From contig NZ_CP180230.1 of NCBI RefSeq assembly GCF_047555085.1, positions 780,001 through 812,000 of the forward strand: a DNA stretch of 32,000 nucleotides, given 5' to 3'. The position numbers were made by a program, and so were the translations under genes. The notes beneath the pieces were generated by a model. The model had not been told where the DNA came from. It made no database searches and saw nothing but the letters and a program-made list of their open reading frames with translations. Shown piece after piece: positions 6,962-30,942 of this stretch. Position 1 is the first letter of the stretch, and each line of letters starts with the position of its first letter. The stretch is from Candidatus Saccharimonadota bacterium (GTDB lineage: Archaea; Nanohalarchaeota; Nanosalinia; Nanosalinales; Nanosalinaceae).

Positions 6962-8607
6962 TTCATAGTAAACAGGCCGAAGCCGATCTTCAGATCATAG
7001 TAGTACCTGAACTTCATCTCATGCTCCATATCAGCCCATGCTGTGCTTTCATCAACCAGATATTTATCCACCTGGCCTGTAAAGAGTTTAAGCTTCCTTT
7101 CTATACCCTGATAGAAATCAGGTCCGCCGCTTTCCGAATCCTCGTGGAATTCAGTGTCCAAGACTTCATCTAGGGCCTTTAACTGATCATCATTGAATAC
7201 AACATCCAGTTCATCCAGTCCGTCTTCCACCCTTCTGATACGTGAAGATACCTCCAGAGGGATTTGCTCGCCAATCTCTTCTTCTAGGGCCTCTCTCAGC
7301 TCCCTGACCGACATATCTTTTTCATGCCTGGCATCTTTCAGTTTCTTTCCTTTCTTGGTATCAATATTTCCTTTGTAGTCCTGAAGCTTCAGTTTCAAGT
7401 CTTTCTCAACTTCATCAATACGTTCCTTGAAAATATTCTCAAAGACAAACTTGTCGACAATCGCCGGATGCCAGAAAACCTTCGCTACAGAAGGCCCCTG
7501 CTTCGGATCAGTCGGCTCCTCACCACCGGCCAAGTTCGCATGCACCTGATGCAGAAAAATCACTCTGTAATGAGTGATCTCATCCTCATCATCCGTTACA
7601 ACTATGTCTTCTCCGGTATTCTTCAGGCCTCTGTAAATTATATATTCTCTTTCAGTAAACAGCGAGCTGTATCCCCGTAGCTGTATATGCCTCCGCATGT
7701 CAGAGGCCAGTTCCTCCTGAGACTTGTTGTTAATCATCTCCATATCCCGTACGTACGGCTCCAAATAATCCTCAGTCTCTTCTATAGCTCTCTCAATTCC
7801 TTTCAGCTCTCCTTTCAGCTCTTCAAGCTTCCTCTGAATCTCACTGCCGTACATGTCCTTCCATTTCTCGTACATCGCATACTTCTTCTTCAGAATCGCC
7901 TTAACGTTCGCTGGAAGATGAGCAAGCTTTCCATCCTCCAGATCCTCTTCATCCTTATCCTCGTACTTCTTTGCCTTATCCTCGGCAGACATCAGATCCT
8001 CCGTGGAATCCATCTCGTTGAAGTCAGCGACTATAGAAGGATACAGATTCTGATCACGCAGGAACTTAAGAGAAGCTCTATCGCCTCCCTGGCCTCCCGA
8101 AGCACCGGCTCCATCAACCAGTTCGACGAAGTCAGCCTTTATCCGGGTTTCGTTCCCTTCCTCGATGTCCTCTATGCGGGAACGGAGCTTCCTTATATCA
8201 TGTTCAAGCATATGCTTCTGTTTCAGAAGCTCCGAAAGATTACGCTTAGTCTCTTTTACACGTTGCTCCGCATTCTGATGCTGCTGCATCAACTGATTAT
8301 GCAACTGGCTGTCAGGAGAGACATAAACACTTTCCTCAACCTTTTCGGCAGTATAGTTAAGATCATCAGCGAACTTGTCAACAGAATTAATAACCATCCC
8401 ATAAGGGACTCCTCCACGTGTATTGGACTTTACCTTGATCGACTTCCACTGCTCTCCCATCAGACCTTTTATCGATCCTGGACCATCATCACTCCTTACA
8501 TCCTCCAAGGTCTCGATCTTGCCGCTGCGTACAGCTTTTTCCCACGGCGAACCGTTAGAGGTCTTGAAAACATATCCAAAACCCGGATGATCTTTTGAGT
8601 CTGACAC
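6958..8607 (-). CDS. 549-aa acidic coiled-coil protein, function unknown; first gene of a two-gene operon
   Basis: Long ORF with acidic composition. GTG start at 8607 with ATTTTAAG (8633-8640, minus sense) about 26 nt upstream. Central heptad-rich regions and a Gly-rich patch GAGASGGQGGD. Stop overlaps the start of the next gene. Confidence 0.78.
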   Translation of the reverse strand: MSDSKDHPGFGYVFKTSNGSPWEKAVRSGKIETLEDVRSDDGPGSIKGLMGEQWKSIKVKSNTRGGVPYGMVINSVDKFADDLNYTAEKVEESVYVSPDSQLHNQLMQQHQNAEQRVKETKRNLSELLKQKHMLEHDIRKLRSRIEDIEEGNETRIKADFVELVDGAGASGGQGGDRASLKFLRDQNLYPSIVADFNEMDSTEDLMSAEDKAKKYEDKDEEDLEDGKLAHLPANVKAILKKKYAMYEKWKDMYGSEIQRKLEELKGELKGIERAIEETEDYLEPYVRDMEMINNKSQEELASDMRRHIQLRGYSSLFTEREYIIYRGLKNTGEDIVVTDDEDEITHYRVIFLHQVHANLAGGEEPTDPKQGPSVAKVFWHPAIVDKFVFENIFKERIDEVEKDLKLKLQDYKGNIDTKKGKKLKDARHEKDMSVRELREALEEEIGEQIPLEVSSRIRRVEDGLDELDVVFNDDQLKALDEVLDTEFHEDSESGGPDFYQGIERKLKLFTGQVDKYLVDESTAWADMEHEMKFRYYYDLKIGFGLFTMK

Positions 8608-15941: not shown

Positions 15942-18059
15942 TCAGTGGAAGCCTTCAAAGGCCTCCTCAGCTTTCTCCTCCTCTTCAGCCATCTTATCTC
16001 GGAACCTGTCTACAGCAGCTTCAATCTTCTCCGAAAATGCTGAAACGGCAGGAATCTGAGGCAATTCAAGGCCTCTAGGAATCTGAAGATCAAGATCTCT
16101 TCTGTCGCTTGTATACAGGAATGCTCCTCCTGCACCGCCTATAATCACAAGGCCTAGCAACATCATCATCAATGTCTGTCGGAACTCGTTGGATTCATGC
16201 TGTTTTTTCACTTCTTCTACAGTTGAAGAAGCTGACTGATAGCTTGACTCAAGGCCTTCAACAACTGAAAGCGCTCTATGATACTCGCCGCTTTCCTGGA
16301 ACTGCTCAGCTCTCTCCACCATCTCCACGAATTCTGAAGTCCCGGATTCAAGAGAACTATCAAGCTCCCCGTTGATACCGGAACTTCGAAGGCTGGAAAT
16401 ATTTGACTCAATCTCCGCTAAGCGGGAAGAATAAGTCTCAATCCTGCTATCAACTTTCTCCCTCTGAGCGCTGTTAGCCTTCACAAGAATCTCCACCGAA
16501 TCAGAAGCCGAAGGACTATCAGACTCAAAAGTTGCATTCCAGAGGCCTGTCTGATTCTCGGAAGGAGAGATCTCGAACTCTGCATTAGCTGAATCACCTT
16601 CCTCTAGGCCTTCAACAGTCTTTGTGCCTTCGAAAAGCTGCGAAGAAGCCGTTACTTCAACAGATTCTACAAGAAGCTTCCCTGTATTCTCAACTACAAC
16701 ATCAATATTTCCTGTGCTTCCAGCCTCTACCGAAAAATTATCAGAGGCCTCCAGAGCAATCCTTGGTGTCGCATCAGGATGGTACTCGAAATCAATAGAT
16801 CTCACATCACTCCAGTGCCCCACACGATCACGCGCACGGACATAGACAGTCTGCTGAGTATCCTCACTGTCAAGCAAAGCAGTATCAACAGTGAAACGCC
16901 CTTCCCCATCGTACTCAACAGTATTTCCATCTCCTTCGCTTGTACCAGCGTAGAAGAAATACTCCAGCTCCTGAACTCCAGAAGCCGAGTCAGAGGCCTC
17001 GTAAGTAACATCAAAATCATCACTGTAAACTTTGTAATCCCTTGCTGCCTCAAAATTTTCAAGCACAGGATCAGAGGAATCAAAAGTATAAAATCTTTCA
17101 TCAGACTCCGCACAGTTACCTGCACGATCACAGGCCTCTACACTCACGTCTACTGTATCATCATCGACTTCCTCAGAAGGAATCTCACATGAGAAATCTT
17201 CCTCATCATCCCAGTCAGTTGTAGAAACTTCATCGCCGTCTACAAGACACTTCACCTGCACATCGCTCTCCTCCTCATCAATATTCCCTACAGTTACATC
17301 AAGGCCTACATCCCCGTTCAGATCAACATTATCGCCGTCAGCATCCTCAACAGTAAATTCAGGATCATCCGCCTGGAATTCATTATCGAAAGTTAAAGTT
17401 GGATTAGACTCTCCAGAGTTACCTACTTGATCAACCGCCTCAAGATTGAGAGAAATTTCGTACCCGATATTAAGATTATCAGTATCCAAGTCAAATTCTT
17501 TGAGACATCTACTTCCGGACGAACAGTCAACATCCTTTTCATCAAGAATATCTGTATTATCTGCATATGCAGATAGATCATCAATATTGCTGTATTCATC
17601 TTCAGCTAAAACAGTTATAGAAGGATTGTCACTGACAAAATCCAAATCACCATCTTGAAGAGAAACAGATGGAGGGCCCTGATCTTTTGTTAGATCAATC
17701 TCGGCTAGCTCAATCTCACTGGTACCGTCTGTGAGATTAGCTCTAATAGTATACTGCCCACTACCTTCATCACTCAACTGTGCTGTCCAGTAATTTCTAT
17801 CCCCCCCAGAGTAACTTTCTGGGGAACTATCTGTATCAAACTGCGTCCAGTCGTCCTGGCCTTGATCGCTCCAATAGAAAATCACTTCTGAACCTGTTCC
17901 TGACTCATGTGTTACGTTAAGAGTGTAATCAGAACCTATGACTGTATCAGCATTAGAAGGGGAATCCCAGTCAAGTGCTGCTGCGTTTCCGATTACTAGT
18001 GTTGTGAAAATTAGAGTGATTGCTACTTTGAGCGCTTTCTGGCCTTTGATACTTATCAC
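15942..18059 (-). CDS. Type-I membrane surface protein with several Ig-like/CARDB-like beta domains, coiled-coil stalk, C-terminal TM anchor and acidic cytoplasmic tail
   Basis: Signal-peptide-like N-terminus (KGQKALKVAITLIFTTLVIGNAAA). Recurrent motifs AVDQVGNSGES, ACDRAGNCAES and ARDRVGHWSDV. VVVENTGKLLVESVEV is CARDB-like. TM anchor LMMMLLGLVIIGGAGGAFLY. GTG start. Confidence 0.8.
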   Translation of the reverse strand: MISIKGQKALKVAITLIFTTLVIGNAAALDWDSPSNADTVIGSDYTLNVTHESGTGSEVIFYWSDQGQDDWTQFDTDSSPESYSGGDRNYWTAQLSDEGSGQYTIRANLTDGTSEIELAEIDLTKDQGPPSVSLQDGDLDFVSDNPSITVLAEDEYSNIDDLSAYADNTDILDEKDVDCSSGSRCLKEFDLDTDNLNIGYEISLNLEAVDQVGNSGESNPTLTFDNEFQADDPEFTVEDADGDNVDLNGDVGLDVTVGNIDEEESDVQVKCLVDGDEVSTTDWDDEEDFSCEIPSEEVDDDTVDVSVEACDRAGNCAESDERFYTFDSSDPVLENFEAARDYKVYSDDFDVTYEASDSASGVQELEYFFYAGTSEGDGNTVEYDGEGRFTVDTALLDSEDTQQTVYVRARDRVGHWSDVRSIDFEYHPDATPRIALEASDNFSVEAGSTGNIDVVVENTGKLLVESVEVTASSQLFEGTKTVEGLEEGDSANAEFEISPSENQTGLWNATFESDSPSASDSVEILVKANSAQREKVDSRIETYSSRLAEIESNISSLRSSGINGELDSSLESGTSEFVEMVERAEQFQESGEYHRALSVVEGLESSYQSASSTVEEVKKQHESNEFRQTLMMMLLGLVIIGGAGGAFLYTSDRRDLDLQIPRGLELPQIPAVSAFSEKIEAAVDRFRDKMAEEEEKAEEAFEGFH

Positions 18060-20886: not shown

Positions 20887-21537
20887 TTACTGGCTCTGGA
20901 AGAAGCTGTCAAGTTTTTCCTTGTCTTTTTCAGGGCCTATCATGATAAGCTGGTCGTTTTCTCTGAGTTCGACGTCTTCTACTTTTTCTTCATCTCTAAG
21001 TACAGATGTGATTTCGAAGGACTGTGGGAATTTCTTCATCTTCTCGATCTCGTCTACTGTTCTGTCCTCCAGTTCTGAGCTTTCCTTTACAGAGGCCTTT
21101 ACAAGTTCAAGGTCTCCTTTCAGGTTGGCGAGTTTGACGAGATACGGGTGCTCTACAGTTGAGAGGAACTCTGATAGAAGTATATCGTTGTGGCTTATCG
21201 GCTGTGCATCGATTATCTGGAAGGCGTCAACGTATTCGTCGTCTTCAACTCGTGTTACTACTTTCGGCACTCCGTATTTTTTGGCCAGTGTGCATACAAC
21301 CATGTTTTCGTTATCTTCTTTTTCAGCTGCTATAAGAACGTCTGCTTTTTCTATACCTGCATCTTCAAGCGCCGAGATAGTTGTAGGAGATTTATTTATG
21401 ACTGTAGCTCCGCTTGAGGAGTAGAGTCTGTCGCATTTATCTTTATCTGCATCTACTGCGACTACATCGTGATTTCCTTCCAGCTTCTTCACGAGTCTTT
21501 TCGACATCGAGTTTATCCCGGCTACTACTACATACAT
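20887..21537 (-). CDS. trkA: TrkA-type (RCK) potassium-uptake regulatory subunit, single N+C module
   Basis: 216 aa with an N-terminal Rossmann-like VVVAGINSMSKRLVKKL...VVAVD and a C-terminal TrkA-C-like domain. Sits directly downstream of trkH in the same operon. Confidence 0.87.
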   Translation of the reverse strand: MYVVVAGINSMSKRLVKKLEGNHDVVAVDADKDKCDRLYSSSGATVINKSPTTISALEDAGIEKADVLIAAEKEDNENMVVCTLAKKYGVPKVVTRVEDDEYVDAFQIIDAQPISHNDILLSEFLSTVEHPYLVKLANLKGDLELVKASVKESSELEDRTVDEIEKMKKFPQSFEITSVLRDEEKVEDVELRENDQLIMIGPEKDKEKLDSFFQSQ

Positions 21538-21541
21538 TGTA

Positions 21542-22957
21542 TCAGTCTTTGATTGTGCTCCTATTAAATATTGCCAGAACCGGCAGCATCTCCAGTCTAC
21601 CTGCCACCATTGCCACTGTAAGAATGATTTTAGAGACTACAGAGGCCTCTGAAAGAAGCGAATCGGTGAATATCGGCCCCATATTCCCTATAGTTGAGAA
21701 AGCTACAGATACAGCGCCTTTGAAACTGTATCCTTCAAGGCCTACAAGCGAGATAGCTATCAGAAAAGAAACTGATATCCACGTAAAGAAAAGCACCGAT
21801 ACAGTCTTGACTGTTGAACTATCAAGTATCTCCCCATCTATCTTAACTTTATTTACAGCTGTATCAGGGAGAGAATAGGCCTTTAATCTAGTTTTCAGCA
21901 TCTCCAGCATTGTTTTTATCCTGAATATTTTGAGGCCTCCTGCTGTAGATCCTACTGATCCTCCTACAAACATGACTGCGAGGAGCATGATCTGTACTGC
22001 CGGTGCAGCTACCATGATATCTATAGTGGCGAATCCTGTGGAGGATATGAATGCTGCACTCTGGAAAGCTCCATGGAGCACAGGATCAGCTGTTTTACCG
22101 ATTAAATCGAATGTCAGTACTGCTGTAACAACAGCGAATATGGAGAGATACAACTTGAATTCCGAGTTGTTTCTCAGAGGCCTGTAATCTGATCTAAGTA
22201 CTCTGTAAAGTATTACGAAGTTGATTCCTCCAAGAAGCATGAAAAGCGTTGAAATGGCCTGTATCTGTGGCGTGTATACTGCGAAGCTTGCTCCCTGAGT
22301 GGAGAATCCTCCTGTTGAAAGTGTTGAGAAAGCGTGTATAACTGCCTGGAATACAGGCATCTTTGATGCAACGAACAGGCCTATTAGAAGCGTCGTAAGG
22401 AATCCGTATACTCTCCACAGATCGATTACTGATTTCTTGAGCGAAGGCCTTATGCTTCCTGGATCTGTTTTATGAGCTTCTGCGGAGAAAAGCCGCTGTG
22501 AAATACCTCCTGACTGCTTCAGTACTGCTATGAAAAATGTCAGTATGCCGAGGCCTCCTATCCATTGCATGAAGCTTCTCCAGAAAAGTATCGAGTGCGG
22601 AAGATTTTCTGGTGCAGAAAAAATGGATATGCCTGTTGTTGTGAGGCCTGAAGCTGCTTCAAAAATAGCATCGGCCACAGGAAGGTATTCTGTCAGCGGT
22701 ATCGATCCCAGAAGTATCGCCGAGGCCCATCCAAGCAAGGTAAGTATGATGGCCTCCTGGACAGAGGGATCTCCAGTAGATCCGTAACGATGCATCAATG
22801 TTCCTGCTACAAGACTCAGAAGAGACGTTCCTGTGAAAAGGTAGAAGTTGAGAGCTTTCTCAGGGTATACAAGTGTAAGAACTGCAGGGAGAAAAGTAAG
22901 GACTGCGTATATCTGCAGGAATCTTCCAAGCACCCCCATCAATAGGCCTCTCCGCAT
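21542..22957 (-). CDS. trkH: TrkH-type potassium uptake membrane subunit
   Basis: Four pore-loop-like motifs (GLTTTGIS, LSTGGFST, SSTGFAT, TIGNMGP) within a polytopic membrane protein of 471 aa. Confidence 0.93.
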   Translation of the reverse strand: MRRGLLMGVLGRFLQIYAVLTFLPAVLTLVYPEKALNFYLFTGTSLLSLVAGTLMHRYGSTGDPSVQEAIILTLLGWASAILLGSIPLTEYLPVADAIFEAASGLTTTGISIFSAPENLPHSILFWRSFMQWIGGLGILTFFIAVLKQSGGISQRLFSAEAHKTDPGSIRPSLKKSVIDLWRVYGFLTTLLIGLFVASKMPVFQAVIHAFSTLSTGGFSTQGASFAVYTPQIQAISTLFMLLGGINFVILYRVLRSDYRPLRNNSEFKLYLSIFAVVTAVLTFDLIGKTADPVLHGAFQSAAFISSTGFATIDIMVAAPAVQIMLLAVMFVGGSVGSTAGGLKIFRIKTMLEMLKTRLKAYSLPDTAVNKVKIDGEILDSSTVKTVSVLFFTWISVSFLIAISLVGLEGYSFKGAVSVAFSTIGNMGPIFTDSLLSEASVVSKIILTVAMVAGRLEMLPVLAIFNRSTIKD

Positions 22958-23111
22958 AAGTTCTTGATGGTCTGTGTTTGAATAAAAAACGCTCTGTAGA
23001 AAGAGAAAGGTTGGAGATGGCGGAGGGTTTCATAAAGTTTTACAGGTCATCTTGTTCATGCTCGGAAAGATATCTTCAGGATTATTGGACTGAGCAAAGG
23101 TGAATCAAATT

Positions 23112-23477
23112 ATGCAGATTACAGTTGGAACACAGGACGGCGAAACATTCCAGAAAGAAATTGAAGAAACATCTCAGCTTGTAGGTAAGAAAATCGGCGA
23201 GACTTTTGAAGGAGGAGTTCTAGGCCTTGATGGTTACAAGCTTGAAGTTACTGGCGGTAGCGATAAGCAGGGCTTCCCTATGAAGAAGTCAATGGAAGGT
23301 GCTGAGAGAAGAAAGGTTCTACTGAAAGAAGGTACAGGCATCCGTGAAGATGTTGACGGTGTAAGGAAGCGGAAATCTGTACGTGGAGATACTGTTTCGC
23401 AGGAGATCCAGCAGCTTAATACAAAAGTTGTTGAGGCAGGGGATAAACCCGTTGAAGAGCTTCTTGAAGAAGAATAA
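23112..23477 (+). CDS. rps6e: 30S ribosomal protein S6e
   Basis: GYKLEVTGGSDKQGFPMKKSMEGAERRKVLL is the S6e signature. ATG 23112 is preceded by AAGGTGA at 23097-23103; the track's GTG at 23100 lies inside that SD. Confidence 0.93.
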   Translation: MQITVGTQDGETFQKEIEETSQLVGKKIGETFEGGVLGLDGYKLEVTGGSDKQGFPMKKSMEGAERRKVLLKEGTGIREDVDGVRKRKSVRGDTVSQEIQQLNTKVVEAGDKPVEELLEEE

Positions 23478-23480
23478 ATC

Positions 23481-24674
23481 ATGAATAAAGAACTACCCGA
23501 AGTGAATGTAGGCCTTGTAGGGCACGTTGATCACGGAAAGACAACTCTTACCAGAGCTCTCTCCGGTAAATGGACTGATGAGCACAGCGAAGAACTGAAG
23601 AAAGGCATCACGATCAGGCTTGGATACGCTGACGTCACATACTACAGAGACGATGAAGGAAACCTGAACGTTGATGGAGACGGCGAGACAGTTCGTTCGC
23701 TTTCTCTTGTTGATGCTCCAGGCCACGAAACATTGATGGCTAACGTGCTTTCCGGTGCCGCAATCATGGACGGTGCTGTTCTAATTATTGCCGCTAACGA
23801 AGAGTGTCCTCAGCCACAGACGCGCGAACATCTGGCAGCTCTTGACATCATAGGAATAGAGAACATAGTTATTGTCCAGAACAAGATCGATCTCGTGGAC
23901 AAGGAGCAGGTACGTGAAAATTATAACGAGATAAAAGACTTTGTCGAAGGCACAGTAGCCGAAGACGCACCTATCATTCCTGTATCGGCACAGCACGAAA
24001 TCAATATAGATGCTCTTCTGGAGGCAGTTGATGAGGAAATCCCTACACCAGAAAGAGATCTGGAAGCCGATCCAAAGATGCTTGTCGCACGATCATTCGA
24101 TATCAACAAGCCAGGACAGCTACCTGAAGAAGTCAGCGGAGGAGTAGTTGGCGGAAGCCTCACACGTGGAAAACTTGAGCCCGAAGATGAAATAGAACTG
24201 AAACCAGGCCGCAAAGTCGGCGAGGAAAAATGGGAGACAGTCACAACAACTGTAGAAAATATAATCCACGGAAACGATATCGTGGACGAAGGAAGGCCTG
24301 GAGGCCTTCTAGGAGTCGAAACAAAGCTTGATCCATCGATGACGAAGTCCGATGGCCTTGAAGGAAACGTTTTAGGCCTTAAGGGGACTCTTCCAGATAC
24401 AACTTACAATATAGAGCTAGAGGCAGAGCTCATGGAAAGTCTTGTTGGATCTGAAGACGATAAAGAGATTGAGAACATCAAGGAGCACGAGCCTTTGATG
24501 ATCAACGTAGGTACAGGGAAGTCAGCAGGCTTTGTTACACAGGCAGGTAAGAACGTCAAGCTCGACTTAAAAGTGCCGATCTGCGCTGAGGAAGGCGATA
24601 GAATAGCTATTTCACGCCAGATAGGTTCTAGATGGCGCTTAATCGGTCACGGCAAGATTACAGGCGTTGAATGA
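23481..24674 (+). CDS. eif2g: Translation initiation factor aIF2 gamma subunit
   Basis: G motifs GHVDHGKTTL, DAPGHE and NKIDL, with domain II/III architecture. 397 aa. Confidence 0.96.
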   Translation: MNKELPEVNVGLVGHVDHGKTTLTRALSGKWTDEHSEELKKGITIRLGYADVTYYRDDEGNLNVDGDGETVRSLSLVDAPGHETLMANVLSGAAIMDGAVLIIAANEECPQPQTREHLAALDIIGIENIVIVQNKIDLVDKEQVRENYNEIKDFVEGTVAEDAPIIPVSAQHEINIDALLEAVDEEIPTPERDLEADPKMLVARSFDINKPGQLPEEVSGGVVGGSLTRGKLEPEDEIELKPGRKVGEEKWETVTTTVENIIHGNDIVDEGRPGGLLGVETKLDPSMTKSDGLEGNVLGLKGTLPDTTYNIELEAELMESLVGSEDDKEIENIKEHEPLMINVGTGKSAGFVTQAGKNVKLDLKVPICAEEGDRIAISRQIGSRWRLIGHGKITGVE

Positions 24675-24720
24675 AAAATAGTAGATTTTTAACTAACCAT
24701 AACAAGGTTGTATCTGTACA

Positions 24721-26292
24721 ATGTCACTCTCGACAGCACTCGCCGATCTCTCCGCAGGCCAGGGAGCATTATTTCGCACACTTGTAACACTTGGCCTTCT
24801 TGTAGGAGGACACATTCTGGTGAAAATCTTTGCAGTTATAGTAAGGAAAACCTGGATGCAGCGAGGAGAGGATCTGACAAAGAAAGCGATCCAGAAGCGT
24901 TACGATGCTGTAAAGAACATTACATACATACTTGATGCTGTAGTTATCGCCGCAGCACTTCTATACTTGAATACAGGCCTGACCACCACACTTACAGAAA
25001 AACTGACTTCAGGCCTTCCGGATATACTTTCCGTACTGCTGATAGGTATACTCGGGATTTTGCTTGTCAACTTTGTGACAAAGTTCGCAAGCGGATTCCT
25101 GAACCGTCTTGGAACAAGAAACTACCTGAGAGAGATAGGCCTATCACAGAACGCTACACGACTGCTAAGCCTTATAGTGAAGGGCTTCCTGTACCTTGTA
25201 GTTTTCCAGGTAGTGCTTGAACAACTGGGAATCGGAAACACGTTCCTTGACAAAGCGATAACTGCTTCAGCATATGCAGCAGTCTTCCTTGTAGCAGGCC
25301 TCGCATTCTGGGGATTCAAAGATCTAGCAAGAAACATGGCAGCAGGCCTCTATCTAAAGAACTCCAGACTTGTAAGGCCTGGAGAAAAAGTCTATCTCGA
25401 GGAAGAGAGCGGAGAAATCCGCGACGTTGATCTGTTCAGCACCGAAGTAGAGACTGACGGCGGATACCGGCTGCTGACACAGAACTCAAAGATCATGGAT
25501 GCCGATCTGAAGTTCAAAGATACACAGAGCGATATAGAAACACTTGAAGACGTGAAGAGACATTTCACAGCTCAGGATCCATCTTACTGTGGGCCTGCTT
25601 CAGCAGAGATGGCCTTAAGTATCTTTGGATACCGATACGGTCAGGAAACAATCGGAGAAATGTGTGATACAGAAGTAGGCGTTGGAACGATGCCTGACGA
25701 TCTTATCGAATCCATTGAAACTCTCACCGATGGAGAAGTTAAAGCTGCGTACGTTGAGTACGACAAGATCACGGATCTTGCGGACGAGTTCAAGATCTGG
25801 TTCAACGACGGTGCACTGATAATACCGAACTTTGCAAAGCCTGTGCTATTCCCTCAGGCTGATACAGCACACTACAGCTTGTGTGTCGGAGTTGAAGGCG
25901 AGGATCTTCTGATTGTTGATCCAAGTACTTCAACAGTATCAGGCGGAGTCTACTATGCAGATAGCTCTGAGATGCTGGAGGCTATGGGAGAGTTCGAGGG
26001 CAGAAGCAGAGGATATCTTGTGCTTGCTCCTGAAGATACAACAGCTTACTGGAGGATCAACAAAGGCCTGATCTACGCAGACAAGAGCTTCTACGATGAG
26101 ATCAGCAAGAACATGGAGCTTCAGCTCAGAAGGATTCTGCGTCAGGGAAGGATTCTGAAGAACGTTCTTCCAGAGGACTTGCAGTCTTACCTGGATAAAT
26201 GGAAGAAAGAGGAGAAAGTAGGAAGAGTATGGAAACCTGAGAGCAAGCGGAAAGAAGGTGAAGAAGATGGAACTACTGATTCTGGCGAATGA
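24721..26292 (+). CDS. Fusion protein: MscS-like mechanosensitive channel core plus C-terminal papain-fold (peptidase C39-like) cysteine peptidase domain
   Basis: N-terminal TM helices, then the MscS pore helix/beta-domain pattern FLVAGLAFWGFKDLARNMAAGLYLKNSRLVRPGEKVYLEEESGEIRDVDLFSTEVETDGGYRLLTQNSKIM. The C-terminal domain carries DPSYCGPASAEMAL (Cys nucleophile context) and TAHYSLCVGVEGEDLLIVDPS (His/Asp). Confidence 0.78.
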   Translation: MSLSTALADLSAGQGALFRTLVTLGLLVGGHILVKIFAVIVRKTWMQRGEDLTKKAIQKRYDAVKNITYILDAVVIAAALLYLNTGLTTTLTEKLTSGLPDILSVLLIGILGILLVNFVTKFASGFLNRLGTRNYLREIGLSQNATRLLSLIVKGFLYLVVFQVVLEQLGIGNTFLDKAITASAYAAVFLVAGLAFWGFKDLARNMAAGLYLKNSRLVRPGEKVYLEEESGEIRDVDLFSTEVETDGGYRLLTQNSKIMDADLKFKDTQSDIETLEDVKRHFTAQDPSYCGPASAEMALSIFGYRYGQETIGEMCDTEVGVGTMPDDLIESIETLTDGEVKAAYVEYDKITDLADEFKIWFNDGALIIPNFAKPVLFPQADTAHYSLCVGVEGEDLLIVDPSTSTVSGGVYYADSSEMLEAMGEFEGRSRGYLVLAPEDTTAYWRINKGLIYADKSFYDEISKNMELQLRRILRQGRILKNVLPEDLQSYLDKWKKEEKVGRVWKPESKRKEGEEDGTTDSGE

Positions 26293-27097
26293 CTTCGACA
26301 CACAGGAAAAAAGATTCAGCAACTACTTTGAAGAAGTAGAAAAAAAATCCCTGGCAGACGTCCTTATAGACACAGATAAAGATGAAAACGTCCTCGTGGA
26401 CGGAGAAAGGATAGAGGCCTGGGACGCAGTTTACATCGATCCGGAGCCAAAGGCCTTCAACTACCTGCGAGTGCTAGTCGAGGCCCTTGGACAGAAAGAT
26501 ATCTCATGCAACCTTGATCCATCTTCAATATTTATACTGGCCAAAAAACCTTACCTGTTCAGCGTAATGGCAGAAAGAGGAGTTTCAATACCTGACCAGG
26601 TGGCGATATCTACAGAGAAAGGCCTTACAGAGCTCGAGAAAGATGTAGATTTCCCTGTAGTGGCTAAAAAATATTCAAGCTTTGAGCTAGCCGAAGCAAA
26701 AATTTTCGAGGATTTCGACAATCTGAAATCTTTTGCAGAAATCTCTGAACACGGAAAGGACTTCATCATGATTCAGGAGTACAGTGATGAAGATATTTTT
26801 GACGTTCTGTACATAGACGGCAATTTGATATCTTTGAAGCTGGAGGAATCTCCGTGGGTGGCCTCTGAAAGCACTTCTGTTGCCAAAAAGTATCACAGCA
26901 TATCTACAGATCAGAAGGAGACTGTTGAAGATGCTGTAAGTTCTCTGGGCACCAGCATATGCCAGATCAGGATGAAAGGCAACAAAGTGATGGATATCGA
27001 CAGCAGCCCGGATCTTGAGGCCTTCAAGGAGAAAAGCGGGAAGAATATCTACGGAAGAATTTCCGATATGTTGAAGGAGGGAAACGAGGATGAATAG
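26267..27097 (+). CDS. Degenerate (probably catalytically inactive) ATP-grasp paralog of the downstream RimK-type ligase
   Basis: Colinear with the next gene: WDAVYI~FDAVYL, FPVVAKKYSS~YPAVIKIISG, IMIQEY~CLQEFI, VMDIDSSPD~IGEINASPG. It lacks the Gly-rich loop, the R-x-N...GG motif and the E-x-N motif. ATG 26267 is preceded by AAGGTGA at 26255-26261 and overlaps the upstream gene's end. Confidence 0.65.
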   Translation: MELLILANDFDTQEKRFSNYFEEVEKKSLADVLIDTDKDENVLVDGERIEAWDAVYIDPEPKAFNYLRVLVEALGQKDISCNLDPSSIFILAKKPYLFSVMAERGVSIPDQVAISTEKGLTELEKDVDFPVVAKKYSSFELAEAKIFEDFDNLKSFAEISEHGKDFIMIQEYSDEDIFDVLYIDGNLISLKLEESPWVASESTSVAKKYHSISTDQKETVEDAVSSLGTSICQIRMKGNKVMDIDSSPDLEAFKEKSGKNIYGRISDMLKEGNEDE

Positions 27098-27115
27098 TTT
27101 CAGGAGGCAGATAAA

Positions 27116-28003
27116 ATGAAATGCGCTGTTATATACGGCAAGAAATCGGCCCAGCATCACCACTTCATAGAGGCAGGAAAAAAACATTTTGACAAGGTTC
27201 TTGGAGCCCCGCTGGAAGGTATAAGAACAGTATATACAGAAGAAGGCACGAAGCTGATGTATAATAATACTGATTTATGCGAGTTTGATGCAGTGTATCT
27301 GCGGCTTCTTGGAAACGATCTGATGTACGGAGAACATATTCCGGAAGTACTGAGGGACAACGAGGTGTACACACAGCTTGAATCTGACTCTCTCGCTATC
27401 GCCTCCAACAAGTTCCATATGATGAAGGTGCTTGCTGATGGAGGCCTTCCTGTTCCGAGATCAACTTATACTCTTTCAACACGTGAAACAGAGAGAGCCG
27501 GAGACATGCTCGGATACCCTGCTGTAATCAAAATAATATCCGGATACGGCGGGAAAGGAGTGATGAAGGCCGATTCAAGATCCGATATAGGGCCTATAAC
27601 AGATACTTTGACTCTTTTCGAGCAGGATATCTGCTTGCAGGAATTCATCGACAATCCCGGAGAAGATATACGAGTCCTTGTCGTAGGCGATGAAACGTAC
27701 GCCTACAAAAGGGTAGGCGGGGAAGAAGAGTTCCGTTCCAATATTTCTGCTGGAGGAGCGCGTGAAAAAATAGAGCCAAGCGAAGAGATGATAGAGGCCT
27801 CTATAGGAGCTGCAGAGCTCTGCGGACTTGACATAGCAGGTATAGATATCATAGAAGATGAAAGCGAAGAAGGAGGATTCTACATCGGCGAGATAAATGC
27901 CTCTCCTGGAGTAGAAGGTACAGGAGAAGTTATAGACGCCGATCTGGCGGATGAGTTCATGGCTTTCATAAAGAGAAAGACGCTGGAAGAGGACCAGCTA
28001 TAA
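27116..28003 (+). CDS. RimK-family ATP-grasp ligase (alpha-L-glutamate-ligase-like)
   Basis: Motifs VIKIISGYGGKGV, LQEFI, DIRVLVVGD, FRSNISAGG, AGIDII and IGEINASPG. AGGAGG at 27102-27107. Confidence 0.9.
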   Translation: MKCAVIYGKKSAQHHHFIEAGKKHFDKVLGAPLEGIRTVYTEEGTKLMYNNTDLCEFDAVYLRLLGNDLMYGEHIPEVLRDNEVYTQLESDSLAIASNKFHMMKVLADGGLPVPRSTYTLSTRETERAGDMLGYPAVIKIISGYGGKGVMKADSRSDIGPITDTLTLFEQDICLQEFIDNPGEDIRVLVVGDETYAYKRVGGEEEFRSNISAGGAREKIEPSEEMIEASIGAAELCGLDIAGIDIIEDESEEGGFYIGEINASPGVEGTGEVIDADLADEFMAFIKRKTLEEDQL

Positions 28004-29032
28004 TTCCTCAAAATCTCTTTCCACTGTCTTAACTGCTTCATCCAGCTGTTCTTCCTTGAAAGCGTTGTATGCCGGTATCCCGACATTGTCTTCTATAGTC
28101 TTCTTCCCTGCTGTTGTATCAGTGATAGGGCCTGAGATAAAGCTTATACGGTAGTCCATGTCGCCGAGAACTTCTTTAAGGCCGTAAGCACCCATAACAT
28201 CAAGTGATACAGCACATACGCTGAAAATAGATTTCTTAACGTCAAGATCTCTTATAACTTCCCTGACTCTGTAGTTACTGATCAGGCCTGCGCCGAACTC
28301 CACTACAACAAAATCTAGATCGTTTTCACGCCATGCATAGTTCATCAGGCCTTTAGCGGAAGATATAACTGTTTCAGGATCTTCTACAGTAGTCGGGATT
28401 CCTGCATCAACAAAGTCCAGTGAAACTTTTGATCCGGCATCGTACATACTCAGGCGATCTCTTTCACGGGCTGATCCTGTAAGCTTCAGAGATCCTACAT
28501 CGTAGTCCTCGCTCAGATTCTCGATAAGTCTTGTAGCAAGAGTTGTCTTACCTGCGTCCATCCTTGAAGCGACTACGGCAACCATTTTCACGTCTTCAGT
28601 TACTTCATCGGATCTTTCGATGCCGTAATGCTTCATATTTCTGATCTCATCACCGTTCCTCACATAACCAAGGAATTCGGCCTCACAGGGATCCTGAAGC
28701 TCTTTCGCTGAGCTCTCGTAATCTCCAAATATCCCTCCTGAACCCAGGAAGTAGACTTCGTCGCCTTTCTCAATTTTCTCCGGCACGTCACCTATGTATC
28801 CTTTAACGCCGGCCCTGTTACCGAAAGCTCCTACAACTATATCTCCCTCTTCAAGATCTACCAACTCTCCTCCTTCCAAGTCGAGCTCCCTGTAATTATC
28901 ATTTACATCCGTAATTCTTACGGCAACTACGTCGCCGCTTTGAGGCCTGTGGCCGCTGTACTCTATATTTACCTCTTCTCCAAGTTCAACGCGTTTGAGA
29001 CATGAGGCCTTGTAATCGTATTCTGTAGCCAT
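27998..29032 (-). CDS. Two-domain protein: N-terminal beta-rich domain plus C-terminal P-loop NTPase-like domain, function unknown
   Basis: Walker-A-like VAVVASRMDAGKTTLATRL and Walker-B-like DLDFVVVEFGAG. Convergent with the ATP-grasp gene, sharing the 6-nt CTATAA stop region. Confidence 0.72.
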   Translation of the reverse strand: MATEYDYKASCLKRVELGEEVNIEYSGHRPQSGDVVAVRITDVNDNYRELDLEGGELVDLEEGDIVVGAFGNRAGVKGYIGDVPEKIEKGDEVYFLGSGGIFGDYESSAKELQDPCEAEFLGYVRNGDEIRNMKHYGIERSDEVTEDVKMVAVVASRMDAGKTTLATRLIENLSEDYDVGSLKLTGSARERDRLSMYDAGSKVSLDFVDAGIPTTVEDPETVISSAKGLMNYAWRENDLDFVVVEFGAGLISNYRVREVIRDLDVKKSIFSVCAVSLDVMGAYGLKEVLGDMDYRISFISGPITDTTAGKKTIEDNVGIPAYNAFKEEQLDEAVKTVERDFEEL

Positions 29033-29099
29033 AAATTCTTCAACGATAGCGGAGCTTAAAATACTATTTACTTGAAACTTCAGGCCTCAAAGATTCTAC

Positions 29100-29477
29100 A
29101 TGACTAAGAAAATCCTGCTTGACACAAATTTCCTGGTAGCGCCGTTCCAGTTGAGTATAACGATATTCGGGGAGCTGGACAGACTGTATCCTGTCAACAG
29201 TATCTATACACTGGATGATGCAGTGCAGGAGGCGAAAAGTATTGAAGGCGGGAAGTACGGCAAGCTTGTTGAAAAGTTGATAGAAACACAGGACATCAAA
29301 GTGCTTGAGACTGAGGGAGAGGGAAGTGTAGACGACTTGCTTGTGGATATTTCTGACGAATTCGCTGTAGCTACTAACGACAAAGAACTGAAGGAACGAC
29401 TCGTGGATGAAGGAAAAGAAGTCGTGATTATACGTGGCGGAAATCACCTGGAGGCCGTCAACGGGAACAGGCTGTGA
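29100..29477 (+). CDS. PIN-domain protein of the archaeal Fcf1/Utp24-like type usually found upstream of rpoE'
   Basis: N-terminal LLDTNFL acidic motif and VATNDKELKERL. 125 aa. Conserved position before rpoE'. Confidence 0.8.
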   Translation: MTKKILLDTNFLVAPFQLSITIFGELDRLYPVNSIYTLDDAVQEAKSIEGGKYGKLVEKLIETQDIKVLETEGEGSVDDLLVDISDEFAVATNDKELKERLVDEGKEVVIIRGGNHLEAVNGNRL

Positions 29478-29570: not shown

Positions 29571-30146
29571 ATGTACAAGAGGCTGGATATGTCGGACTCG
29601 ATTCGAGTTCCTCCCGAGCATCTCGGTGAGGACGTCAATGAAAGCGTCGTAGGCGCTTTAAGCAAGAATGTAGAAGGAAACATCTTCGAAGATGCAGGAG
29701 TAGTCCTCGCTGTCGAAGAAGTTACTTCTGTAGAAGGTGGAAAAATAGAGCCCGAAGACGCAGGTATCCACTACGATGTCGAGTTCACAGCTATTGCATA
29801 CCAGCCAGAGCTACAGGAAGTAGTTGAAGGAGAAGTAGTTGATATCACAAGCTTCGGAGCTTTCATCCGTATCGGGCCTCTAGACGGGCTATGCCATGTT
29901 TCACAGATCATGGATGAGTACGTCAACATGGATGAAGAGAACAACATGCTTGTCTCAGAGGAAGGAGAAAAAACTCTCGAGATCGGAGACTTCGTAACTT
30001 CAAGAATGATCGCAGTCTCAATGAAAAATCAGGACAGCAACAAGATCAACCTGACGATGAGACAGCCAGGCCTCGGAAAAGAGGAATGGATCGAACTTTA
30101 CGAAGAAGAACAGGCAGAAGAAGACGACGAAGAAGGTGACAACTAG
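29571..30146 (+). CDS. rpo7: DNA-directed RNA polymerase subunit E' (Rpo7)
   Basis: N-terminal Rpb7-like domain plus S1 domain GEVVDITSFGAFIRIGPLDGLCHVSQI, with an acidic tail. Confidence 0.93.
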   Translation: MYKRLDMSDSIRVPPEHLGEDVNESVVGALSKNVEGNIFEDAGVVLAVEEVTSVEGGKIEPEDAGIHYDVEFTAIAYQPELQEVVEGEVVDITSFGAFIRIGPLDGLCHVSQIMDEYVNMDEENNMLVSEEGEKTLEIGDFVTSRMIAVSMKNQDSNKINLTMRQPGLGKEEWIELYEEEQAEEDDEEGDN

Positions 30147-30148
30147 AT

Positions 30149-30337
30149 ATGGCAGAAAAAGCTTGTTCCGAATGCCACAGACTTGTAGAAGAGTCAACAG
30201 AATGCCCTATCGACAAGAACAACGATTTAAGAAGTAACTGGAGCGGCTTAGCCGTTATATACGATCCAGAAGACTCAGAAATCGCAGACAAACTAGGCGT
30301 AAGCGTCGCAGGACGATACGCGATCAGTGTAAGGTGA
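30149..30337 (+). CDS. spt4: Transcription elongation factor Spt4 (RpoE'')
   Basis: 62 aa with zinc-ribbon-like CSEC...CPID and the conserved WSGLAVIYDPEDSEIADKLGV...GRYAISV. Located right after rpo7. Confidence 0.85.
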   Translation: MAEKACSECHRLVEESTECPIDKNNDLRSNWSGLAVIYDPEDSEIADKLGVSVAGRYAISVR

Positions 30338-30348
30338 AAAAATAATTT

Positions 30349-30789
30349 ATGGAAGTTCAAATTGAATCAGTACGAGAAAATCCTCTTCTGGAACGCAGAC
30401 AGGTAACACTGGCTGTAGACCATGAAGACGATTCAACCCCAAGTAGAGAAGATATCAAAAGCAGATTCGCTGCTGAAAACGCAGTCGACGAAGAAAAAAT
30501 CGAAGTAGGCACAATCCACACAGGATTCGGCCGAAACTCTTCGAAAACAGAGCTTAAAGTCTACGAAGAATTCGATTACAGCGAAGATCTTGAAGAAGAG
30601 GCCTCTACAACTTCAGAGACAGTTGAAGTAACTGAAGAATACGAGGAAATCGTCGCAGGAACAATCACAGATGCAAAAGACGCAATCAACGATCTTGAGG
30701 ATCCTGACTACAAGGCCTTGATCGAGGCAGAAGTAGAGAACAAAAACCGCACAACACTAGTTGACTGGCTTGAAGGCCAGATGGAGTGA
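30349..30789 (+). CDS. rps24e: 30S ribosomal protein S24e with about 45-aa C-terminal extension
   Basis: ENPLLERRQVTLAVDHEDDSTPSREDIKSRFAAE...IHTGFGRNSSKTELKVYE matches S24e. The extra acidic C-terminal segment ends in ...KNRTTLVDWLEGQME. Confidence 0.9.
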   Translation: MEVQIESVRENPLLERRQVTLAVDHEDDSTPSREDIKSRFAAENAVDEEKIEVGTIHTGFGRNSSKTELKVYEEFDYSEDLEEEASTTSETVEVTEEYEEIVAGTITDAKDAINDLEDPDYKALIEAEVENKNRTTLVDWLEGQME

Positions 30790-30795
30790 TTCAAG

Positions 30796-30942
30796 ATGGG
30801 AAAGAACGCTAACGTAGCAATCTACGAGAAGTACAACGAAGACGGGACATTCAACGGAGAAAAATGCCCTGTCTGCGGAAGCTTCCTGGCAGAACACGAC
30901 GACAGGAAAAGCTGCGGCAAGTGCGGCTACACACAGCACTAG
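30796..30942 (+). CDS. rps27ae: 30S ribosomal protein S27ae (48 aa; below the ORF-track cutoff)
   Basis: My translation is [48 protein letters not shown], with a C4 zinc ribbon. Canonical position after rps24e. Confidence 0.9.

Follow-up and report, generated by a model that had tools for sequence, protein, structure and literature searches.

A stretch of 32,000 nucleotides from a nanohaloarchaeal genome (contig NZ_CP180230.1, positions 780,001 to 812,000, forward strand; hereafter the window, numbered from its first letter) carries a cassette of four genes between the genes for aIF2-gamma and a PIN-domain protein. According to the open reading frame (ORF) map of the window, the cassette occupies positions 24721-29032. 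Gene 1 (24721-26292, plus strand) encodes a 523-aa protein, here called the fusion protein, in which an MscS-type channel core is joined to a papain-fold peptidase domain. Gene 2 encodes pGrasp, an ATP-grasp-like protein of 276 aa when read from the ATG at 26267 to position 27097 (plus strand; a GTG start at 26258 is possible). Gene 3 (27116-28003, plus strand), identified by ORF map, Pfam and NCBIfam, encodes a RimK-family ligase of 295 aa, and gene 4 (27998-29032, minus strand) encodes a P-loop protein of 344 aa.

The flanks belong to a string of translation and transcription genes. On the upstream side, rps6e (23112..23477, plus strand, with an alternative GTG start at 23100; Pfam Ribosomal_S6e, E=2.3e-37) encodes a protein with the C-terminus ...LLEEE and is followed by the aIF2-gamma gene at the edge of the cassette (23481..24674, plus strand; Pfam GTP_EFTU and eIF2_C). 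The downstream edge is the gene for a PIN_9 protein (29100..29477; PF18477, E=1.7e-12). Beyond it lie rpoE' (29571-30146; Pfam SHS2_Rpb7-N and S1), spt4 (30149-30337; Pfam), rps24e (30349-30789; Pfam) and, from the ORF map, rps27ae for a 48-aa zinc-ribbon protein (30796-30942), all on the plus strand.

The cassette is compact. A spacer of 46 nt separates the aIF2-gamma stop from gene 1, genes 1 and 2 overlap by 26 nt, and the 18-nt gap between genes 2 and 3 (27098-27115) contains a Shine-Dalgarno-like AGGAGG (27102-27107, plus strand). The stop codons of genes 3 and 4 overlap convergently by 6 nt, while gene 4 and the PIN gene diverge from a 67-nt spacer. These junctions were read directly from the sequence, and they agree with a preliminary description of the window, made from its letters without database searches, which had reported the 26-nt overlap, the AGGAGG gap and the shared stop region, and had proposed a tight coupling of the cassette genes. 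The same description had found every member of the string present in canonical order, with four genes separating eif2g from PIN; the ORF map and Pfam bear this out. Its gene identities (an MscS/papain-like fusion, a degenerate ATP-grasp, a RimK-type ATP-grasp and a P-loop protein) are supported by the domain searches given below.

An intergenic alignment of 7 species contains a TTTTTAAC element (24686..24693, plus strand) about 30 nt 5' of the fusion ATG, a candidate archaeal TATA box. Across the 7 species this element is kept while the adjacent bases vary, which points to a separate archaeal promoter for the cassette and to a transcript with a short leader. A scan for sigma-70 promoters and intrinsic terminators, a type of scan unsuited to archaea, returned nothing beyond shuffled expectation.

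Domain architecture of the cassette proteins

Profile comparison, Foldseek and AF2 modelling place five predicted transmembrane (TM) helices and an MscS beta-domain in the N-terminal part of the fusion protein (aa 1-265; 24721..25515, plus strand). The fifth predicted helix is the equivalent of the MscS pore helix TM3. The family profile aligns with residues 93-175 of E. coli MscS, comprising TM3a/b and the beta-domain (E=5e-10), with the hinge Asn and Gly of the pore helix conserved, and Foldseek matches the N-terminal half to MscS with E ~3e-6. MscS matches in Pfam are weak for the window protein and PF00924/PF05552 are found in its homologs; the full-length NCBIfam MscS score of 25 bits falls below the cut-off of 321. 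The pore helix with its hinge and the beta-domain (PF00924) are thus recognisable, and the C-terminal alpha/beta cage domain and beta-barrel are not: the alignment with E. coli MscS ends at residue 175, and the peptidase domain occupies the region that follows. By these alignments, the fusion protein is a homolog of the MscS channel core in which the cytoplasmic alpha/beta cage domain has been replaced by a predicted papain-fold peptidase domain.

The putative peptidase domain spans aa ~275-445 (25543..26055, plus strand; PF13529 and Foldseek). It scores 24.6 bits against Peptidase_C39_2 (PF13529), barely above the cut-off of 24. The best Foldseek match of the C-terminal half is Alr0975, a primitive phytochelatin synthase (E=2.8e-7, TMt 0.64, rmsd 3.3 A, 19% identity), followed by the pseudomurein endoisopeptidase PeiR and then by the C39 domains of PCAT1/ComA (TMt 0.73-0.78). 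Alignment locates the catalytic set at Gln285, Cys290, His384 and Asp400, that is, a papain fold with these residues in the order of Peptidase C39/C39_2. The ABC-exporter fusion and double-glycine leader of bacteriocin-processing C39 peptidases are missing; all ~60 cluster representatives of the family combine MscS core and peptidase. Phytochelatin synthase (PF05023) gives no hit in the window protein and faint precomputed hits in some homologs, so that the likeness to phytochelatin synthase, judged from the models, is structural only.

The rest of the protein (26056..26292, plus strand) is a helical extension ending in a disordered acidic tail, as seen from alignments and pLDDT, and its last 26 nt are those that overlap gene 2. 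W444, R445, Y452, Y458, K463, E466, R474, W494, R502 and W504 are invariant in the alignments of the extension, and pLDDT drops below 50 for aa 498-523. The AF2 model as a whole reaches pLDDT 72 and pTM 0.41, with 80-91 in the peptidase domain. We considered the acidic tail as a RimK acceptor comparable to LysW or S6, an idea weakened by its inconsistent last residue (N in 17, E in 11, K in 5 and others among 44). Conservation of the tail may also stem from the other reading frame, because the tail is encoded in the 23-32-nt overlap with pGrasp.

From the cytoplasmic location of the MscS beta-domain and the K/R-rich loops after TM1 and TM3, we infer an N-out, C-in topology with a cytoplasmic peptidase domain, which would share its compartment with the ATP-dependent ligases. 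When the C-terminal half was searched against 1.84 billion cluster representatives, only 74 matches were obtained, ~50 of them proteins of ~500 aa matched at the same position. The divergent fusion matches all carry the MscS beta-domain; beyond these, the closest proteins are small C39 domains of a generic kind. Judged from this search, the combination of MscS core and papain domain is narrow and essentially confined to this family.

pGrasp has no Pfam hit and weak ATP-grasp matches in NCBIfam. The profile of its family matches the Pseudomonas RimK structures 7qyr/7qys over the full length with E ~1e-7, which supports fold homology to RimK. The motifs of an active ATP-grasp enzyme are lacking: the Gly-rich loop and R-x-N...GG are absent, D-x-D/N stands in place of the Mg ligands E-x-N, and some members lack the Lys as well. 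Because these catalytic motifs are lost, pGrasp is probably a divergent RimK paralog acting as a pseudo-enzyme subunit or adaptor. The CDC123/R2K clade of ATP-grasp proteins binds eIF2-gamma, and an archaeal CDC123 was considered for pGrasp and rejected: a profile search of solved structures gave RimK, cyanophycin synthetase and Ddl and no Cdc123 entry, and Pfam gave no D123 or DUF4343 hit.

Gene 3 is, by family and motifs, predicted to encode a RimK-family ATP-grasp alpha-L-glutamate ligase. Its product scores 110.9 bits against PF08443 (cut-off 21; E=7.5e-32), 144.0 bits against TIGR00768 (cut-off 143.4, a marginal pass) and E=3e-28 against the E. coli RimK structures 4iwx/5zct. All ATP-grasp motifs are intact, namely the central-strand Lys, the Gly-rich loop, the Q-E hinge, R-x-N...GG and the E-x-N Mg ligands. 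The score of 117.5 bits against the S6--glutamate ligase equivalog NF007764 lies below the cut-off of 331, and the MptN, LysX and CofF equivalogs are far below theirs too.

The P-loop protein (27998..29032, minus strand) combines, according to AF2, Foldseek and Pfam, an N-terminal beta-rich domain (aa 1-126) with a SIMIBI-class NTPase domain of the MobB/BioD/DUF1611_C type. Its motifs are a Walker A G161-K-T, K183 and E245-x-G-A-G, and its AF2 model is confident (pLDDT 93.6). With the C-terminal 200 residues, Foldseek finds HypB (8e-7), BioD (2e-6) and TM0796 (4e-5). Pfam matches across 33 family members are weak (MobB in 27/33, CbiA in 18/33, DUF1611_C in 11/33, and AAA_26 too); the window protein has a weak MobB match, and all family scores stay below cut-offs. 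Nothing matches the beta-rich domain, which is unlike the one at the N-terminus of DUF1611 proteins. Membership in DUF1611 was rejected: PF07755 is weak in the 11/33 and absent in the window protein, a PDB profile search returned no DUF1611 structures, and TM0796 matches the P-loop half only (TMq 0.38).

Two homologs of the P-loop protein occur apart from the cassette. In an assembly labelled 'Halobacteria archaeon' (GCA_042218125.1; locus L005, 6038-7066), a 49%-identical homolog stands alone after topoisomerase VI genes, which could be symbiont-to-host gene transfer or bin contamination. At loci L009/L010 (5832-8008), the homolog is bacterial, with 30% identity, and there is a 4-nt overlap between its gene and the stop of a Peptidase_M20 gene. 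For the family at large, this neighbour is a hint of an amino-acid or peptide amide function.

Conservation, core and context of the cassette

Scanning species-representative genomes with an alignment of the fusion protein gave 46 loci, for which gene order was tabulated. The order TrkA< TrkH< S6e> aIF2g> [cassette] PIN> RpoE'> Spt4> S24e> is found in 28 distinct nanohaloarchaeal species-level loci in which both flanks are visible, and 7 further, shorter contigs show one matching flank. The aIF2g-PIN site is occupied in Nanosalina, Nanohalobium, Nanohalovita, Asbonarchaeum and QJJ lineages, down to ~46% identity of the fusion protein, whose homologs are almost all labelled Nanohaloarchaea. The window can be assigned to Ca. 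Nanosalina (Nanohaloarchaeota, DPANN) through its P-loop protein, which a Ca. Nanosalina sp. VS9-1 protein matches with 100% identity; an exact search with the fusion protein gave no record. Composition is native: the GC content of the cassette is 0.458 (window, 0.457), and its codon usage correlates with that of the flanks at r = 0.94, compared with 0.81 between the two flank halves. Since the same site is occupied in 28 loci down to ~46% identity and the composition is native, the insertion is old and fixed across Nanohaloarchaeota and not an accessory element of this genome.

As an alternative, the cassette could be a mobile accessory island or a defence system that entered the housekeeping operon of this genome recently. 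This would fit the interruption of a gene string that is contiguous elsewhere in archaea, as well as the fact that the 3' gene content differs from clade to clade. The lineage-wide occupancy of the site and the flank-like GC and codon usage argue against it. Moreover, no integrase or transposase appeared in the ORF lists and Pfam/NCBIfam scans of cassette and flanks (repeats and tRNA genes were not searched for), and PADLOC gave 0 hits for all four proteins. We consider its probability practically negligible, and recent horizontal acquisition or a defence island was ruled out on the grounds of site occupancy, native composition and the PADLOC result.

Contiguity of the string in other archaea was examined at aIF2-gamma loci that a degenerate pattern for the a/eIF2-gamma motif RSFD[VI]NKPG picked out of metagenome contigs; these loci were annotated with HMMs built from nanohaloarchaeal proteins. 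Among 51 informative loci, 26 have PIN at most 150 nt from aIF2-gamma and 6 have it within 1 kb; no PIN was detected in the other 19. In 25/48 sampled loci S6e lies immediately 5' of aIF2-gamma, and RpoE'-Spt4-S24e usually come next. The HMM annotation produced no match to the cassette families in any of 80 sampled archaeal aIF2-gamma loci. Because aIF2-gamma and PIN adjoin in 26/51 other loci and the cassette families occur in none, the interruption in this lineage is special. Our literature searches found no documentation of the contiguity of the S6e-aIF2-gamma-PIN string. In two unrelated archaeal metagenome contigs (L065, 3930-6062; L128, 4362-6458), ~2 kb of other DNA lie between PIN and RpoE', which shows that interruptions occasionally occur elsewhere in the string too.

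Within the cassette, the order fusion > pGrasp > RimK is constant, and 42 loci hold all three genes. The fusion and pGrasp genes overlap by 23-32 nt in 37/42 of them, and the median distance from pGrasp to RimK is -4 nt. The fusion and RimK pair recurs in at least 5 genomic contexts. Besides the aIF2g-PIN site, it is found in soda-lake metagenome-assembled genomes (MAGs), where the module is not at aIF2g-PIN but adjoins aS21-S12-S7-EF2; in a Woesearchaeota MAG with fusion and RimK convergent (L051); at L057, where the two are adjacent; and at L058, where the fusion gene precedes a pGrasp-like gene, RimK, a gene of the N-formylglutamate-amidohydrolase family and a YheCD-type ATP-grasp. The constant order, the kept overlap, the short distance and the recurrence of the pair in several contexts are strong evidence that the cassette is a functional unit with the channel-peptidase and RimK as an obligate pair.

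The 3' end is variable. A convergent P-loop gene occupies it in Nanosalina-like clades, Asbonarchaeum, QJJ-5 and Nanoanaerosalina, and GCS2 with a convergent third ATP-grasp in Nanohalobium-like genomes; GCS2 alone and the third ATP-grasp alone occur as well. Linkage of the P-loop gene to the core is seen in two genomic contexts, and the soda-lake MAGs labelled Aenigmatarchaeota carry it together with the third ATP-grasp. At L037 (9334-11217) the third ATP-grasp is present in two tandem copies 3' of RimK, and the fusion peptidase there has Q>K and C>T. In all lineages the accessory genes are YbdK/GCS2, a glutathione-synthase-like ATP-grasp or the N-formylglutamate amidohydrolase family. No retropepsin-like peptidase gene (RimB/RloA) was found in any locus examined.

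These results modify the preliminary description. Its premise that eif2g and PIN are normally adjacent holds in view of the 26/51 loci within 150 nt, and the co-occurrence of the genes in at least 5 unrelated contexts favours the functional coherence it proposed. As to its four-gene unit, three genes do form a conserved core, whereas the fourth, the P-loop gene, is one of several clade-specific alternatives. Its notion of an accessory module dropped into a housekeeping locus is contradicted by the 28 two-flank and 7 one-flank loci and by the comparison of GC and codon usage with the flanks that it had itself suggested, in which both match (0.458 vs 0.457; r = 0.94). It had named the presence of the same genes at this position in all relatives, with a characterised function, as evidence against itself; the genes are there in the relatives, and a characterised function attached to them is not.

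The four catalytic positions of the papain domain were scored in 72 fusion homologs. Q/C/H/D is intact at every locus with a P-loop or GCS2 gene, and most loci with only the third ATP-grasp have lost at least one catalytic residue (H>N; Q>E with H>E; C>S with H>E; C>T; C>N with H>S). These positions read E/S/E/D in a large subclade from metagenomes, and Cys and His are missing too from the most divergent fusion members, among them L057 and L058. RimK persists in every case, whether or not the peptidase residues are intact. Since many lineages with RimK have lost catalytic residues, the papain domain most likely has binding as its conserved role, with catalysis only in some lineages, those with a P-loop or GCS2 enzyme.

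Further observations concern the surroundings. At L038 and L053 (Nanoanaerosalina), the cassette follows aIF2-gamma and PIN-RpoE'-Spt4-S24e are not within 6 kb downstream, so the string is broken at the cassette. An ORF of ~102-110 aa without Pfam hit stands between rps6e and aIF2-gamma at L001 (6466-6774), L003/L021, L011 and L024 and is not present in the window; it is a further interruption of this string, smaller and likewise lineage-specific. TrkA-TrkH, for K+ uptake, are always just 5' of the string (20887-22957 in the window), and in four lineages (L025, L038, L039, L053) an ordinary MscS-like gene is inserted between TrkH and S6e. A gene for a Na+/H+ exchanger with a TrkA_N domain comes after Kae1-Sua5, downstream of the string, and ion-homeostasis genes thus bracket the translation string. 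Elsewhere in the window, three large ORFs on the minus strand have no Pfam hit at E<=1e-5 (4550-6961, 803 aa; 6958-8607, 549 aa; 15942-18059, 705 aa), the last with a syntenic, unannotated counterpart in L004.

A possible glutamyl-peptide ligase/peptidase module

By analogy with RimK-RimB and RloABC, we propose that the cassette is a membrane-anchored glutamyl-peptide ligase/peptidase module ancestral to Nanohaloarchaeota, a reading to which we give a probability of roughly 0.45. The RimK ligase, probably as a hetero-oligomer with the inactive pGrasp, would use ATP to add glutamates to a cytoplasmic carboxylate acceptor, in alpha linkage as in RimK. Seven peptidase domains under an MscS-like heptamer would bind the glutamyl chain and would also cleave or transfer it where the triad is intact, as in this genome. 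The chain would thereby be made and removed in a coupled manner at a tension-sensitive channel. As the fourth, variable enzyme, the P-loop protein, YbdK/GCS2 or a YheCD-type ATP-grasp could provide a further ATP-dependent carboxylate-activating step, for example for a primer or a cap. The physiological theme would likely be ion and osmotic homeostasis, as for MscS and the Pseudomonas rlo operon. This proposal gains from the accessory genes, each of which is of a carboxylate-amine ligase or glutamyl-amide hydrolase type.

It is tempting to extend the proposal. An MscS-type channel with a cage of seven papain-fold domains could be the sensor and effector of a non-ribosomal oligo-glutamate: RimK and its docked dead paralog would condense cytoplasmic glutamate, binding of the chains would gate the pore, and the chains would be cleaved where the peptidase is active. 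In a variant, the chain would be built on a protein C-terminus, such as that of S6e or of the channel itself. We regard this extension as quite unlikely. If true, one coupled device would let the cell both alter its number of osmotically active anions and open a release valve, an osmoregulation of a previously unrecognised kind in salt-in archaea with minimal genomes.

Several points weigh against the ligase/peptidase module. A cycle of ligase and peptidase cannot be its universal function, because the catalytic Cys and His are lost in many lineages. The assignment of gene 3 to the RimK family is marginal by NCBIfam (144.0 vs 143.4 bits), and glutamate as the added residue is an extrapolation, since the family spans ligases with very different acceptors (MptN, CofF, LysX). 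The Gly/Ala packing pattern of E. coli TM3a is not kept in the pore helix, so that channel activity is not assured, and the model of the whole fusion protein is only moderate (pLDDT 72, pTM 0.41). An enzymatic role for the P-loop protein is a guess drawn from its fold class. Finally, the osmotic theme comes from analogy and from genes nearby, those for TrkAH and a Na+/H+ exchanger, whose presence may be a coincidence.

The same genes could serve a small-molecule pathway, in which the ligases make a gamma-glutamyl or glutathione-like peptide or a dipeptide-type solute, the peptidase hydrolyses or transpeptidates it, and the pore releases the product or its parts, such as glutamate, on osmotic down-shock. 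MscS-family channels do release glutamate, as Corynebacterium MscCG does. Alr0975, the best structural match, forms a gamma-Glu-Cys acyl-enzyme from glutathione, and the faint PF05023 hits in some fusion homologs point the same way, as do the accessory genes of sister clades, YbdK/GCS2 of the glutamate-cysteine-ligase family and glutathione-synthase-like ATP-grasps, and the N-formylglutamate-amidohydrolase-family gene at one locus. We nevertheless consider this pathway unlikely: the clade of the window has neither GCS2 nor the third ATP-grasp, the core ligase is of the RimK type (alpha-linkage, polymerising) and not a glutathione synthase, and the peptidase domain is C39-like and not PCS-like by sequence, with generic C39 domains as its nearest non-fusion relatives and with inactivation in many lineages that keep RimK. 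The C39 likeness, for its part, recalls the cytoplasmic leader peptidases of bacteriocin ABC exporters, for which this family is best known, and the PCAT1/ComA peptidase domains are structural matches (TMt 0.73-0.78). The cassette might then cut the leader of a ribosomal peptide, perhaps modified by ATP-grasp ligases as graspetides, and let the peptide out through the channel, for instance to a haloarchaeal host. RiPPs are known to be modified by ATP-grasp ligases (PMC8939145). However, the spacers of 46, -26, 18, -6 and 67 nt leave no room for a precursor gene, no conserved small ORF is apparent in related loci, the ligases are of the RimK family and not of graspetide families, MscS-type pores are not active peptide exporters, and the peptidase is inactive in many lineages; such an export system is very improbable.

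The position of the cassette raises another explanation, namely that the RimK-type ligase polyglutamylates the acidic C-terminus of S6e or of another product of the translation genes, such as aIF2-gamma, and that the papain domain trims it, as a convergent analogue of bacterial RimK acting on bS6. RimK/RimB act in this way on RpsF in bacteria (PMC11957051). The cassette lies within the translation string in most Nanohaloarchaeota and beside aS21-S12-S7-EF2 in the soda-lake clade. Nanohaloarchaeal S6e proteins (23100-23477 in the window; loci L001-L053) end poly-acidic, e.g. ...LLEEE, and the other sampled archaea have mixed K/E tails. By hand count, ~25/30 nanohaloarchaeal S6e have at least 3 acidic residues among the last 4 (2/32 in other archaea), and 21/31 end in Glu. 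This difference is real but confounded: acidic tails are expected from halophilic proteome acidification, and the comparison archaea include no cassette-free halophile. Proximity to S6e needs no functional explanation either, because the S6e-aIF2g adjacency is ancestral in archaea (25/48 loci). Furthermore, the fusion and RimK pair is away from translation genes at L051, L057 and L058, pGrasp is a probable RimK paralog and not of the CDC123/R2K clade, and the membrane channel would be left without a role. Modification of S6e is thus highly unlikely in our opinion. The probability that remains beyond the ligase/peptidase module and its four rivals goes to something else.

Comparison with known systems

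The preliminary description had not recognised the combination of genes as a described system, and the literature we searched contained no published description of an MscS-peptidase fusion or of this module. Part of the design is known already, namely the pairing, at the membrane, of a RimK-like ligase with a peptidase of the papain superfamily or of another type. What is new is the MscS-peptidase architecture and the fact that it is fixed within a translation gene string throughout the lineage.

Seen from the membrane side, the fusion protein shares with the MscS family a homologous pore-lining helix with N and G hinge residues and the beta-domain, and a heptameric cytoplasmic vestibule is expected. 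It differs in that the C-terminal alpha/beta domain is exchanged for a peptidase domain and helical extension, and in that the Gly/Ala packing of TM3a is not kept. This architecture would be a natural experiment on the replacement of the cytoplasmic domain in MscS-type channels. The C39 domains of PCAT/ComA and Peptidase_C39_2 likewise have a papain fold with Gln/Cys/His/Asp and are cytoplasmic and fused to a membrane transport protein; there, the partner is an ABC transporter and not a channel, and no double-glycine precursor is evident for the cassette. Alr0975 of Nostoc is also a papain-fold enzyme, acting on a gamma-glutamyl peptide, but is soluble and stands alone. The P-loop protein shares the Walker A GKT with the BioD/MobB/DUF1611_C group of SIMIBI proteins, and its Lys after strand 2 and its E-x-G-A-G Walker B correspond to those of dethiobiotin synthetase; its N-terminal beta-rich domain sets it apart.

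Nanohaloarchaeota have genomes of ~1 Mb with very little biosynthetic capacity. That three to five genes for ATP-dependent peptide-bond enzymes and a channel protein are retained at a fixed site across the whole lineage, in spite of such small genomes, argues for an important function.

The nearest analogues of the proposed ligase/peptidase module are RimK-RimB and RloABC. The bS6 protein is not known to exist in archaea. In the rimABK system of Pseudomonas and E. coli, as in the cassette, the gene for a RimK-family ligase lies beside that of a counteracting peptidase: RimK adds a glutamate tail and RimB trims it (PMC11957051). The ligase places alpha-linked glutamates onto a protein C-terminus or makes free poly-alpha-glutamate. 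The cassette peptidase differs in being of predicted papain fold instead of retropepsin-like and in being fused to an MscS-like channel. In the cassette, RimK is always co-translated with a second paralog that is catalytically dead, and a RimA (EAL) gene is absent.

RloABC of Pseudomonas aeruginosa comes close in other respects. RloB, a membrane protein whose transglutaminase domain is inactive, works with the RimK-like RloC and secreted retropepsins, and the system is genetically linked to hypo-osmotic tolerance (PMC11957051). Both systems thus combine a polytopic membrane protein bearing a papain-superfamily (transglutaminase-like) domain, often inactive, with a cytoplasmic RimK-like ATP-grasp, and the loss of the catalytic Cys/His in many members of the fusion family parallels RloB. 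Unlike the fusion protein, RloB has 7 TM helices unrelated to MscS and a domain predicted to be periplasmic, whereas that of the fusion protein is predicted to be cytoplasmic and is catalytically intact in the window. The cassette lacks a secreted retropepsin (RloA) and belongs to DPANN archaea, while RloABC is bacterial (Proteobacteria). In summary, the parallel with RimK-RimB and RloABC suggests a recurrent design, in which a RimK-like ligase and a papain- or retropepsin-type partner meet at the membrane in connection with osmotic stress. Solving the chemistry of the cassette or of RloABC could thus illuminate the other systems.

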